This document shows positions 1-3,493 of a DNA stretch of 4,726 nucleotides, in pieces. Below the pieces are notes generated by a model that saw nothing but the letters and a program-made list of their open reading frames with translations, was not told the origin of the DNA and made no database searches. Both the position numbers and the translations under genes were made by a program. The DNA is from a virus (lineage: Duplodnaviria > Heunggongvirae > Uroviricota > Caudoviricetes): the IMG/VR virus record IMGVR_UViG_2671180846_000006. One strand, given 5' to 3'. Position 1 is the first letter of the stretch; each line of letters opens with the position of its first letter.

Positions 1-215
1 TGCCACAACCGGAAGCGCACGTTCGAAGAAATCTAACGACAAGCCTTCTAAGGGAAAGAGCTTCGCCGTACGCTTTCGCGTTATGCCCTGACTTTTCAGG
101 GAAATATCCTTTCAGTAAACTGTCAGTACCGGATTCTTATCCGTGTCCGGCGCACGACCACACGTGACAGCGTGTTGGTCTCCATTTTTAACCCAGAACC
201 TCAATGGAGGATAAA

Positions 216-425
216 ATGCCAAACAAAAAAAGAAATCCGCTTATTGAAAAACAGATTGAATGCCTGGTAAATCAACTCAGGCAATCAGGGTTATTAAAAA
301 CTCATTCAGAGTTGAGGCTCACAGAATCAGCATTCGACGATAAATTAAATAATGTCCTTTATAATGGCATTATTGATTTTAATCGTTCTGTTGGTCGCCG
401 CGGCCCTGCTGGTGTTTCCTTATAA
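216..425 (+). CDS. Hypothetical small protein, 69 aa from the ATG at 216 (73 aa if from the in-frame ATG at 204)
   Basis: Only ORF on either strand across 204..425. GGAGGA at 206..211 sits 4 nt upstream of the ATG at 216. AT-rich codon usage like the adjacent 216-aa ORF. Stop TAA at 423..425 directly abuts the stop of the convergent minus-strand ORF. No family recognised by eye and no clear promoter upstream. Confidence 0.4.
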   Translation: MPNKKRNPLIEKQIECLVNQLRQSGLLKTHSELRLTESAFDDKLNNVLYNGIIDFNRSVGRRGPAGVSL

Positions 426-1064
426 TTACCAGTCAATCCAGAGTGGACCGTGTTCAGCGTAAATATAACTGTACACATCCAGATTATATTTGTGGTCTGT
501 TAAGAACAGGCCGCAAATACATGCCGAAGCTTCCAGTGCAGCGGCTCTGTTACTGAATAACCATGTAGCAACATTCCAGCGTTTTTCTGCATCCCAGTCT
601 TTCTCAAGGCCTGATACCATGAAGAAACCGTTAGTGTTGCCATCAAATAATTCTGTTTCCAAATTTTTAAGCAATGCCTGATGGACTCTTGCCAGGTATT
701 CCGCCGGAATTTCGCCACGAATTCTAATGAGATTGTCATAAACAAACATGTTCCCCGCATATGGCGATTTTTCTTTCTTGTTTTTTAAACCAGCATCATG
801 AGCAAACTGATCAATTTCTTCTTCCGTTGGTTTCGTATTGATGTTTTGCGCTGTCGTTTCTGCAATTTTATTTGCCATACTCTCTGAGTCGTGTTTATTT
901 ATAGACGCACAGAAATACAATCCGGTAAACGCATCGCGCACATTACGAGCCATATTATCAGTGTCTTTTTTCGTTACCGATTCCAATTCAAGTTCGTTCA
1001 GACGATGACGAAGTGTGTGTGCTGCAATCTCCTGGATTGAAGGAGGTAAATCTTTAAATTCCAT
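426..1064 (-). CDS. Hypothetical protein of unknown function, 212 aa from the ATG at 1064 (216 aa if from the ATG at 1076)
   Basis: Long uninterrupted minus-strand ORF. The ATG at 1064..1062 is preceded by GAGGT with a 5-nt spacer; the alternative ATG at 1076..1074 overlaps the upstream small ORF's stop (TGATG) but has no Shine-Dalgarno. Predicted hydrophilic, with no Walker, HTH or nuclease motif recognisable by eye. Low G+C compared with the replication genes. Confidence 0.7.
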   Translation of the reverse strand: MEFKDLPPSIQEIAAHTLRHRLNELELESVTKKDTDNMARNVRDAFTGLYFCASINKHDSESMANKIAETTAQNINTKPTEEEIDQFAHDAGLKNKKEKSPYAGNMFVYDNLIRIRGEIPAEYLARVHQALLKNLETELFDGNTNGFFMVSGLEKDWDAEKRWNVATWLFSNRAAALEASACICGLFLTDHKYNLDVYSYIYAEHGPLWIDW

Positions 1065-1075
1065 CGTCAACCTCA

Positions 1076-1228
1076 TCAGTCAGTGTTTCTGGCTAACCAG
1101 CGACGCGCGCCAGCTTCAGTTTTAAACGTTTTGCTTCTGGTATACGTCATCGCGGTAAACGTGCCGTCCAGGTTGGAGAATACTCCGCATACCAGAGATT
1201 CGTTGTTGCCAAGATTGAGCGTATCCAT
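1076..1228 (-). CDS. ydfA: YdfA-like small protein (about 50 aa)
   Basis: Translation MDTLNLGNNESLVCGVFSNLDGTFTAMTYTRSKTFKTEAGARRWLARNTD. GAGGT lies 4 nt upstream of the ATG at 1228..1226. It is the first gene downstream of the DicA-like repressor, as ydfA is in K-12 Qin, and I recall the K-12 protein as similar (from memory, not searched). The ORF track's 76-aa version (to 1306) would run through the operator and promoter region and has no ribosome-binding site. Confidence 0.65.
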   Translation of the reverse strand: MDTLNLGNNESLVCGVFSNLDGTFTAMTYTRSKTFKTEAGARRWLARNTD

Positions 1229-1824: not shown

Positions 1825-1853
1825 TTGACTATGTTTTTGTTAACATCTATTTT
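1825..1853 (+). promoter_or_regulatory. Putative sigma70 promoter for the DicC-like gene
   Basis: -35 TTGACT (1825..1830), 17-nt spacer, -10 TATTTT (1848..1853). Operator O3 overlaps the -10 and start region. AAGGTG ribosome-binding site at 1874..1879, 6 nt before the ATG at 1886. Confidence 0.45.
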
Positions 1854-1885: not shown

Positions 1886-2113
1886 ATGCTTAAAACTGAC
1901 GCACTTTTGTATTTCGGTTCAAAAACAAAACTTGCACAAGCTGCTGGTATTCGTTTGGCTTCGCTTTATAGCTGGAAAGGGGAGCTAGTACCTGAAGGTC
2001 GCGCGATGCGCCTGCAAGAGGCATCCGGCGGGGAACTTCAGTACGACCCCAANNNNNNNNNNNNNNNNNNNNNNNNNNNNNNNNNNNNNNNNNNNNNNNN
2101 NNNNCGATATTAA
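1886..2113 (+). CDS. dicC: DicC-like Cro analog (small HTH regulator); 3' third obscured by the N-run
   Basis: Translation MLKTDALLYFGSKTKLAQAAGIRLASLYSWKGELVPEGRAMRLQEASGGELQYDP... matches my memory of K-12 DicC. Divergent from dicA with a good ribosome-binding site. The frame resumes after the Ns and stops at TAA 2111..2113; the 75-aa length is valid only if the N-run length is exact. Confidence 0.8.
   Translation: MLKTDALLYFGSKTKLAQAAGIRLASLYSWKGELVPEGRAMRLQEASGGELQYDPXXXXXXXXXXXXXXXXXXRY
2053..2104. other. Run of 52 N (assembly gap or masked bases)
   Basis: Directly visible. It interrupts the 3' end of dicC and hides the 5' end of the next ORF. Confidence 0.97.
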
Positions 2114-2547
2114 TCACGGAAGCATTCTGGGCTCTGAAAGAACGCCCGAACATCGATGTTCAACGCATCACGTTTAATGATGGCGAGGTTGATCAACGGG
2201 CACTGGGCGTTAACCGGGTGAAGATATTCGAACGCTGGAAGGCTATCGACACCAGGGATAAGCGTGAAAAATTCACGGCGCTGATTCCGGCAATTATGGA
2301 GGCTATCCGGATTAGTGATTTCAGGTTGTACCGCGAAATTACTGACGGAAAAAGCATTACGTACATGATTGCCGGGTTAAACAAAGAATATGGCGATGTG
2401 GTGGAGTCCGGGCTGCTTTTTGCAGATCCAGCTGTTGTGGAACGTGAGACAGACGAGCTTATAGAAAAAGCAATCGCTTTCAAGCGTGCCTATCGTCACC
2501 AGTACCAACAAAAAGCCGGATGGAATTATGAGCCTTCTTTTTGCTGA
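2105..2547 (+). CDS. Probable YdaT-like protein (CII-functional-analog family), 5' end lost in the N-run
   Basis: This frame is open from the gap to TGA at 2545..2547. The visible 147 aa (...KIFERWKAIDTRDKREKFTALIPAIMEAIRISDF...ELIEKAIAFKRAYRHQYQQKAGW) resemble what I recall of Rac/CP-933P YdaT, and the gene sits in the CII position after the Cro analog. The ORF track's GTG start at 2218 is unlikely to be real because the frame is open upstream. Family assignment is from memory. Confidence 0.5.
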
Positions 2548-3493
2548 ACGCCCGCTGGTTATAAACACACAGCTGGCGATGAAGATTGGTTTAAACGAAG
2601 CCATTGTGTTGCAGCAACTGCATTACTGGTTGAGGGATACCAGTTCCGGCATGGAATGTGATGGCGTTCGCTGGATTTACAACACAACGGAACAATGGCT
2701 GGAACAGTTTCCGTTCTGGTCAGAGTCAACGTTAAAGCGTGCGTTTGCAAGTCTGAAAGCGCTGGGGCTTTTGCGTAGCGAAAAGCTCAATAAATCGAAG
2801 CGTGATATGACTAATTTTTACACAATTAACTACGATAGCGCGCTTTTAGATGATGGCAAAGTGAACGAATCCATCGGGTCAAAATGCGCCACTCCATCAG
2901 GTCAAAATGACACGATGGAAGAGGTCAAAATGAAACGTTCCATTGGTTCAAAACGGCCCAATGTCATCAGGTCAAAATGGCCCGATGATCCTACAGAGAA
3001 TACAACAGAGAATACAACAGAGAATAAAAAACTCTCTTGTCCGGACGCTTCGCAACCGGACGAGTTGACGGCTGAACAGGCGTTTTTAACCCGCCATCCT
3101 GATGCAGTTGTGTTCAGCGTGAAAAAACGCCAGTGGGGAACCCGGGAGGATTTGACATGTGCGCAGTGGATCTGGGGGCGGGTTGTAAACCTGTACGAAC
3201 AGGCTGCCAGTGACGATGGTGAGATCACGCGACCGAAAGAGCCCAACTGGACGGCGTGGGCCAATGACGTGCGCACAATGCGGATGCTGGATGGAAGAAG
3301 TCACAGACAAATTTGCGAAATGTTCAGCCGGGCACAACGGGATCCGTTCTGGATAAAAAACATCAAGAGCCCGGAAAAACTCCGTGAGAAATGGGATGAA
3401 CTGGTTATTCGACTGTGGCGTGGTCCCGCGCAGCGTTGCGTGAATCATATTTCTGAACCGGATACCGAAATTCCGCCGGGTTTCAGGGGGTAG
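2528..3493 (+). CDS. Phage replication initiator (lambda O-like replisome organizer) with iterons inside the coding sequence
   Basis: 322-aa ORF from ATG 2528 (MSLLFAERPLVINTQLAMKIGLNEAIVLQQLHYWL...); the track's 335-aa version starts at GTG 2486 with no ribosome-binding site. N-terminal winged-helix-like domain, then a low-complexity linker encoded by direct repeats, then a C-terminal domain. Immediately followed by a DnaC-like gene. Overlaps the upstream ORF by 20 nt. Confidence 0.75.
   Translation: MSLLFAERPLVINTQLAMKIGLNEAIVLQQLHYWLRDTSSGMECDGVRWIYNTTEQWLEQFPFWSESTLKRAFASLKALGLLRSEKLNKSKRDMTNFYTINYDSALLDDGKVNESIGSKCATPSGQNDTMEEVKMKRSIGSKRPNVIRSKWPDDPTENTTENTTENKKLSCPDASQPDELTAEQAFLTRHPDAVVFSVKKRQWGTREDLTCAQWIWGRVVNLYEQAASDDGEITRPKEPNWTAWANDVRTMRMLDGRSHRQICEMFSRAQRDPFWIKNIKSPEKLREKWDELVIRLWRGPAQRCVNHISEPDTEIPPGFRG
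2872..2979. repeat. Iteron array: 4 good copies and 1 degenerate copy of CATCAGGTCAAAATG at about 23-bp spacing (putative ori)
   Basis: Core GGTCAAAATG at 2877, 2900, 2923 and 2970, with a degenerate GGTTCAAAACG at 2945. The 15-mer CATCAGGTCAAAATG is identical at 2895..2909 and 2965..2979; 2872..2886 differs at one base. Located in the linker of the O-like gene, the classical lambdoid origin position. Confidence 0.6.
2994..3029. repeat. 12-bp tandem repeat ACAGAGAATACA x3 (third copy imperfect), encoding TENTTENTTEN
   Basis: Directly visible perfect tandem copies at 2994..3005 and 3006..3017, and an imperfect copy at 3018..3029. In frame within the O-like ORF. A-rich, followed by AAAAAA, immediately downstream of the iterons. 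Confidence 0.9.

Follow-up and report, generated by a model that had tools for sequence, protein, structure and literature searches.

Organization of the locus

The window (the whole stretch of DNA that was analyzed, 4,726 bases) covers the part of a lambdoid prophage that carries its immunity and replication genes, and its features are collected in Table 1. The leftward gene was assigned to DicA on the basis of 235.6 bits in the NCBIfam scan against a cut-off of 101, and its product is 93% identical to DicA of the K-12 Qin prophage. The rightward PR-like site opposite this gene was the sole result of the standard promoter scan. For this site and the adjacent palindrome, the window coordinate equals the coordinate in the O26:H11 reference locus (L001, see below) minus 4621. 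The Cro analog matched P22_Cro in Pfam (E value of 8e-11) and DicC in NCBIfam (105 bits on the truncated protein), and the full 76-aa DicC, taken from an identical genome, is 97% identical to K-12 DicC.

On the replication side, the O-like gene matched PHROG 391 (replication initiation O-like) with an E value of 8e-91, and its start is the one given by RefSeq (L001:7223, corresponding to window position 2528). The helicase-loader gene scored 474 bits against PRK12377, while the DnaC equivalog gave 303 bits, under its cut-off of 357. Within the O-like gene, five 23-nt iterons with the core GGTCAAAATG occupy positions 2872 to 2987 at a spacing of 23 to 24 nt, and these are followed at 2988 to 3029 by three 12-nt repeats, ACAGAGAATACA, that encode TENTTENTTEN. 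The arrangement looks like a lambda-style origin situated inside the initiator gene.

Further observations were made at the left of the window. Two conserved phage ORFs lie to the left of the DUF1391 gene, at positions 426 to 1076 (minus strand; PHROG 2151, E value of 5e-147) and 204 to 425 (plus strand; PHROG 4274, E value of 1e-51), and no Pfam domain was found in either. The motif CATGACTAACA occurs twice (1309 to 1325 and 1346 to 1362) between the DUF1391 gene and the dicA 3' end, and it also builds the palindrome in the dicA-dicC intergenic region. The two copies and the palindrome may be the left and right operator sets for DicA/DicC. An Rfam scan of the window at E values up to 1 gave no match, neither to an oop-like RNA nor to any other known RNA.

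Table 1. Coordinates and assignments of features in the window and of the related boxes upstream of xis
Feature	Position	Strand	Basis or remark
DicA-type CI-like repressor gene, 135 aa	1395..1802	-	NCBIfam DicA NF007257, Pfam HTH_3
PR-like promoter, TTGACT-17-TATTTT	1825-1853	+	Promoter scan; L001:6446-6474
Palindromic operator-like site TTGTTAGTCA/TGGCTAACAA, palindrome TTGTTAGTCATGGCTAACAA	1852-1871		dicA-dicC intergenic region; inverted repeat, L001:6473-6492
DicC-type Cro analog, 55 of 76 codons visible, rest in N-run	1886..2052	+	Pfam P22_Cro, NCBIfam DicC
Masked stretch, 52 N	2053..2104	.	Contents as deduced from identical genomes
YdaT-family (CII-analog) gene, residues 27-173 of 173 visible	2105..2547	+	PF06254, PHROG 163, RefSeq
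Last 13 codons of ydaT-like ORF, KAGWNYEPSFC tail	2509..2547	+	Replication-module leader/start
O-like replication initiator gene, 321 aa	2528..3493	+	PHROG 391
ori-like repeats within O-like gene	2872..3029	.	Five 23-nt iterons, then three 12-nt repeats
DnaC-like helicase-loader gene, 246 aa	3500..4240	+	NCBIfam PRK12377, Pfam IstB_IS21
Predicted boxes 51-66 nt upstream of xis	L001:1337-1354; L009:1697-1714; L010:2004-2021; L011:26441-26458		-10-like hexamer 20-21 nt beyond

Structure of the ydaT-like gene

In the window, the reading frame is open from position 2107 to the TGA at 2545 to 2547, giving 146 whole codons preceded by two bases of a codon at 2105 to 2106. The end of the ORF at 2547 and its 20-nt overlap with the O-like ATG (2528 to 2530), both given in the preliminary description, were confirmed. 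The missing N terminus was deduced from identical genomes. In a megablast search, genomes were found that are 100% identical on both sides of the N-run, with a matched span that exceeds the query by 74 bases. In these genomes, 126 bases (L001:6674-6799) take the place of the 52 N, L001 being the locus of E. coli O26:H11 11368, which served as the reference for the masked stretch. The N-run therefore preserves neither its length nor the coordinates and reading frames across it. An apparent 75-aa Cro analog ending at position 2113 was rejected as an artifact of the shortened N-run, since the run does not keep its length.

The masked stretch hides the dicC 3' end and stop codon together with the ATG and the first 26 codons of the ydaT-like gene, which encode MKITPEQVCEALDAWVCRPGMTQEQAT. 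It also hides the predicted YdaT-box, TTGAACAATGAAAATCAC (L001:6714-6731), and a leftward -10-like hexamer, TACGAT (L001:6693-6688). On L001, RefSeq places dicC at 6507-6737, a gene for a "toxin YdaT family protein" at 6721-7242, and the O-like gene from 7223, all overlapping. The complete ydaT-like gene, which begins 17 nt ahead of the dicC stop codon, is thus 522 nt long and encodes 173 aa (WP_000705368.1). A chance frame can be dismissed, as the ORF has hundreds of homologs and scores above the curated Pfam threshold.

Family membership and predicted fold

The assignment of the ORF to the YdaT family, made in the preliminary description, was borne out by Pfam, PHROG, Foldseek, and RefSeq, all of which agree. 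The visible 146 aa matched PF06254 (YdaT_toxin) with 26.8 bits and the full 173 aa with 26.3 bits, in both cases against a cut-off of 21, and PF06254 is present in all homologs. PHROG 163, described as "CII-like transcriptional activator," was matched with an E value of 6e-32. The NCBIfam scan yielded no model matching the protein. A single-sequence search of the PDB against the two solved YdaT structures was marginal (E value of about 0.05), and a profile of seven subfamily members reached 8bt1 at an E value of 6.5e-4. By BLASTP, the identity to YdaT of CP-933P (sequence from PMC9986795) was 31% over 144 residues.

The fold was predicted with AlphaFold2 from 30 homologs. The model was built for P0001, a cluster representative that shares 96% identity with the window protein, and its pLDDT was 83.8. 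Helices were predicted at residues 5 to 16 and 23 to 36, followed by a 20-residue loop (37 to 56) and a recognition helix (57 to 71) ending in R70-W71. In the Foldseek search of the PDB, the six best matches were all to 8bt1/3c4r, with a probability of 1.00 and TM scores of 0.54 to 0.61 on the target, and the next match had an E value above 1. A POU-like five-helix HTH with a long, variable alpha2-alpha3 loop of 9 to 23 residues is the hallmark of the YdaT family (PMC9986795), and the model predicts such a domain, with its long loop placed directly ahead of the recognition helix. R70-W71 is invariant in the 30 subfamily members and aligns with the RW of Rac and CP-933P, the counterparts being R57-W58 in Rac and R60 in CP-933P. 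In Rac, R57-W58 is required for binding and fold (PMC11879457). The neighboring Rac H56 is not conserved and corresponds to E69 in the window protein.

The window protein belongs to a distinct, longer subfamily (about 160 to 173 aa) found in Escherichia, Salmonella, Citrobacter, Raoultella, and Enterobacter, which was previously uncharacterized and on whose targets the boxes predicted below bear. In the model, helices 99 to 106 and 111 to 130 align with alpha-6 of the solved structures, so that the alpha-6 equivalent is broken, and an extra 30-residue helix (135 to 164) comes after it. Given these two predicted features, the tetramer model, in which long C-terminal helices make up a four-helix bundle needed for DNA binding, might not transfer to this subfamily.

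The description of YdaT as a functional analog of CII that was first flagged as a toxin proved correct (PMC9986795, PMC5917428, PMC11879457). The gene occupies the expected slot, after the Cro analog, divergent from the CI-like repressor, and upstream of the replication genes. No Pfam match to Phage_CII was obtained at E values up to 0.1, and the protein resembles lambda CII in function and position but not in sequence.

The Pfam and RefSeq names, which say "toxin YdaT," would instead suggest the toxin of a YdaS/YdaT toxin-antitoxin pair, acting by growth arrest and not by control of transcription, and Rac YdaT is indeed toxic on overexpression (PMC5917428, PMC11879457). The name goes back to a 2007 prediction for which experimental support was not found in the literature (PMC9986795, PMC5917428), and the toxin-antitoxin model has been rejected there, as YdaT binds DNA and activates promoters (PMC9986795, PMC5917428, PMC11879457). 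Moreover, the predicted fold of the window protein is that of an HTH DNA-binding domain, and the gene lies in the cII slot of the functional phage mEp460. A toxin function was consequently deemed exceedingly unlikely, and the name is misleading.

Relationship to the Qin-type switch and distribution

The preliminary description had read the locus as a mosaic switch in which a Qin-type repressor/Cro pair is combined with a Rac-type CII analog. According to this reading, a Rac-type ydaT recombined behind dicA/dicC to give a hybrid lysis-lysogeny circuit. Lambdoid phages are generally mosaic, and the YdaT subfamily does occur behind two types of Cro gene, namely the PF15943 YdaS type in Citrobacter and locus L008 and the PF14549 P22_Cro/DicC type in E. 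coli and Salmonella. The reading did not hold, since K-12 Qin itself carries an ortholog, ydfX, which stands directly after dicC with the same 17-nt overlap. DicA, DicC, and YdfX of K-12 are 93%, 97%, and 89% identical to the window trio, respectively, and the trio is found in 2,121 genomes as well as in mEp460 and Salmonella. The alignment to Rac YdaT, on the other hand, spans just 29 residues, and the only mappable junction falls on the replication side, at the gene's 3' end, and not between dicC and ydaT. A mosaic origin of the switch is therefore very unlikely. By synteny and identity, the dicA-dicC-ydaT-like trio is a collinear Qin-type arrangement and not an unusual mosaic. The Qin-type switch natively has three regulators, and the gene carried intact by EHEC prophages and phage mEp460 is represented in K-12 by the truncated copy ydfX.

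The same order was observed elsewhere. In phage mEp460, repressor, Cro, YdaT, and O genes follow one another with both overlaps the same as in the window, and in a Salmonella prophage an HTH_3 repressor gene is followed by a P22_Cro gene, the gene for a YdaT of 163 aa, the replication genes, and DUF1627. The gene adjoins dicC or a Cro/CI-family gene in 11 of the 12 sampled rows, and other phage records label the homolog cII or CII-like. Among 5,426 complete E. coli genomes, nearly half (2,509) carry it, 2,121 of them at full length. YdfX has been described as the YdaT homolog of Qin, in the dicC operon (PMC11879457). The gene is thus ordinary, widespread, and already annotated, its link to DicC is already published, and the finding itself adds little; the box analysis is the sole part with some novelty.

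These distributions also bear on whether the gene is a decaying remnant, left intact by chance in a cryptic prophage and nonfunctional, with overlaps that mean nothing. The K-12 copy is truncated, as are many database entries, others being frameshifted, and by analogy the loss of the C-terminal part could be disabling, the isolated DNA-binding domain (YdaT 1-96) being monomeric and without DNA binding (PMC9986795). Such decay was judged improbable for the window copy. Besides the 2,121 complete genomes with a full-length gene, the gene is found in the genome record of phage mEp460, homologs at about 40 to 45% identity across genera keep both the length and the key residues, and many O26 and O145 genomes have a copy 100% identical to that of the window.

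The 3' overlap and the module junction

The overlap with the O-like gene had been taken to imply coupled expression of the lysis-lysogeny regulator and the replication module. The origin of the overlap was deduced by comparison with the O157 PPompW-type allele, which matches only nucleotides 1 to 483 of the gene. The O157 protein (183 aa) has another tail, and its gene overlaps a different initiator gene by 29 nt. In the alignment, the homology ends at about position 2508, 20 nt upstream of the O-like ATG. The KAGWNYEPSFC tail of the window protein is missing from the Salmonella and Citrobacter homologs, in which the overlap is absent and a gap of 29 to 49 nt separates the gene from the next. 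The terminal residues of the tail (168 to 173) have pLDDT values below 50 and were modeled as disordered.

Judged from these alignments, the junction between the immunity and replication modules is placed at about position 2508, within the last 13 codons of the ORF. That the two genes overlap by 20 nt follows from the position of this recombination junction, some 20 nt ahead of the O start and within the 3' end of the ydaT-like gene. The overlap is best explained as a by-product of the junction, the ORF running into the leader of the replication module that was joined to it, and it marks the module junction.

Alternatively, the overlap could be a dedicated device for translational coupling that ties the level of the initiator to that of the CII-like regulator. 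Overlaps are formed with two different initiator modules, of 20 nt in the window and mEp460 and of 29 nt in O157 PPompW, and 7 nt ahead of the ATG at 2528 there is a weak Shine-Dalgarno sequence of the GGA type. The tail is, however, module specific, unstructured, and missing in the other genera with their 29- to 49-nt gaps, and a recombination junction accounts for the pattern without selection. A dedicated device is accordingly considered unlikely, though less so than the alternatives dismissed above. The coupled expression first proposed is supported in part, in that cotranscription with the replication genes is standard in lambdoid phages. The overlap itself is a junction by-product that has no counterpart in the Salmonella and Citrobacter relatives. 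Translation of the two genes could be coupled through it, but as a feature of the design it is not conserved.

Predicted YdaT-box and leftward promoter

From the gene structure, family membership, predicted fold, and synteny observed, and from the presence and conservation of the sites described below, we infer DNA binding, activation, and an oligomeric state for the subfamily protein. The proposed mechanism is as follows. The rightward early operon would comprise dicC, the ydaT-like gene, the O-like gene, and the dnaC-like gene, transcribed from the PR-like promoter opposite dicA, with the ydaT-like gene in second place and overlapping its neighbors by 17 nt and 20 nt. Once infection or derepression has taken place, the protein would oligomerize via its C-terminal helices and bind TTGAAC-N6-AATCAC, an imperfect inverted repeat lying across the start codon of its own gene. 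From this box, centered near -41.5, it would activate a leftward promoter with the -10 hexamer TACGAT, and the resulting transcript would run antisense through dicC into dicA, like that from lambda pRE. Outside the window, 66 nt ahead of xis/int, a second box that co-varies with the first would give a pI-like promoter.

The binding site was predicted from those of the two characterized proteins. CP-933P YdaT forms a tetramer and recognizes TTGATT-N6-AATCAA where ydaS and ydaT meet (PMC9986795). The site bound by Rac YdaT is ATGATTCATGAAAATCAA, the spacer of which contains the ydaT ATG; the protein activates a leftward promoter for racR, and the box ATGATT CATGAA AATCAA has been footprinted (PMC11879457). 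In L001, the sequence TTGAAC AATGAA AATCAC begins 7 nt before the ydaT-like ATG, in the same register as the Rac box, and matches TTGATT-N6-AATCAA at 9 of 12 positions, although the symmetry of the arms is poor in E. coli (3 of 6). The element recurs in Salmonella, Citrobacter, and L008 members, the upstream Cro genes of which are of two types with different end frames, and a box is found at the same offset in 80 CP-933P-type loci. Some of the conservation around the ATG could come from coding (MKI) and ribosome-binding constraints. The pattern TGA-N10-TCA had no match in the visible window because the site lies under the N-run.

A -10-like hexamer was found 20 to 21 nt beyond the box, in the leftward direction, in 9 of 10 sites, against a background of 3.4%. 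For six of seven roughly independent sites this corresponds to a P value of about 1e-8, before an approximately ten-fold correction for the post hoc choice of spacing. With the hexamer at this distance, the box center therefore falls near -41.5, as in a class II activator. With matches at 4 of 6 positions the leftward hexamers are weak, no leftward -35/-10 pair at ≥8 of 12 positions emerged even from a relaxed scan, and about one-third of the CP-933P-type loci and the Citrobacter locus are without a qualifying -10 hexamer at the 20- to 21-nt spacing. In Rac, where a TATGAT hexamer lies 20 nt from the YdaT-box, the 29-fold activation was assigned to a promoter about 190 bp from the box and not adjacent to it (PMC11879457); the spacing seen here suggests that the promoter activated by YdaT is adjacent to the box, not some 190 bp away. 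Taken as a whole, it is likely that the ORF represents the Qin-type ydfX gene in intact form and encodes a YdaT-family, CII-like regulator, for which the proposed leftward promoter would be the most probable mode of action.

Candidate boxes upstream of xis

In the 14 kb of L001, the sole other match to the box with at most one mismatch was TTGAACATTAAGAATCAG, located in the exo-xis intergenic region 66 nt upstream of xis, and this site was also the sole other such match in the 45.9-kb genome of mEp460. At up to two mismatches, the matches in L001 were no more frequent than expected by chance, and the search is informative only at one mismatch or fewer. In a Salmonella prophage, TTGAACATCAATGATCAG lies 61 nt upstream of an unrelated xis-like gene, with flanks that do not align, and K-12 Rac carries TTGATTATTAATAATCAG at a distance of 51 nt ahead of xisR. 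The half-sites co-vary, in O26/mEp460, Salmonella, and Rac alike, with those of the box at the prophage's own ydaT start, and each has its own type of box despite Xis proteins that are unrelated or distant. No third, paQ-like site was present at up to one mismatch in the whole mEp460 genome. Among the 80 CP-933P-type loci, no recurrent box upstream of xis was found, the probable reason being that int/xis is rarely covered.

Several other elements were noted. A match to TGAAC-N7-RTCA follows the antiterminator gene of L008. A stem-loop, GCCGGTTG-N14-CAACCGGC (L001:1290-1319, minus strand), lies between the xis-upstream box and the xis start, with a -10-like TATTCT in its loop and no T-run. A perfect palindrome, CTGATTCGCGT(A/G)AATCAG, was found about 2.1 kb downstream of ydaT (L082:9268-9285, L079:7079-7096, and 13 further CP-933P-type loci), and its half-sites resemble the boxes upstream of xis.

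No mention of integrase or excisionase sites as targets of YdaT was found in PMC9986795, PMC5917428, or PMC11879457. One of these papers reports that xisR and intR rise about 100-fold upon RacR depletion. The boxes upstream of xis are put forward as candidate pI-like promoters, a modest new lead drawn from sequence comparison. The broader proposal, that YdaT-family regulators control a CII-like regulon via class-II-type promoters, with a pI analog in addition to the known pRE analog, was judged to be evenly balanced. If the predicted boxes are true, YdaT proteins would mirror lambda CII at an int promoter as well as at the repressor promoter.

Comparison with known systems

The closest known relative is the ortholog YdfX (b1568) of K-12 Qin, which follows dicC with a 17-nt overlap and whose 89% identity extends over residues 1 to 93. 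YdfX (L002:3347-3637) ends at residue 93 of 173, so that the DNA-binding domain is kept and all of the C-terminal helices are lost. By analogy with YdaT 1-96 (PMC9986795), it is probably inactive. K-12 Qin has also lost the replication genes that come after the window gene, which is itself of full length.

YdaT of CP-933P (8bt1) and its relative 3c4r belong to the same Pfam family and provide the only significant fold match. The likenesses to CP-933P YdaT comprise the POU-like HTH, the long alpha2-alpha3 loop, the Arg-Trp of the recognition helix, and the slot after the Cro analog, and the CP-933P box also begins 7 nt before its own ydaT ATG. The identity of these proteins to the window protein is nevertheless just 27 to 31%, and the latter is about 30 residues longer, with an alpha-6 equivalent that is interrupted by DGKS and followed by the extra helix. 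The half-sites differ as well, being TTGAAC/AATCAC for the window type and TTGATT/AATCAA for CP-933P.

Rac YdaT (b1358) is a CII-like activator of the repressor gene, a tetramer, with a YdaT-box spanning its own ATG (PMC11879457). It shares with the window the order of Cro analog, YdaT, and replication genes, and a box is likewise found upstream of xisR. BLASTP aligns only 29 residues of the two proteins (45% identity), gaps separate ydaS from ydaT and ydaT from ydaU where the window genes overlap, and the partner genes differ (RacR/YdaS and a YdaU-type initiator).

Lambda CII occupies the same slot and, as an early activator of a leftward repressor-establishment promoter and an int promoter with a site that overlaps the -35 region (lambda biology summarized in PMC9986795), follows the logic proposed for the window protein. 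It has no detectable sequence relationship to the window protein, and it binds the direct repeat TTGC-N6-TTGC as an unusual dimer of dimers, in contrast to the inverted repeats bound by YdaT proteins (PMC9986795).
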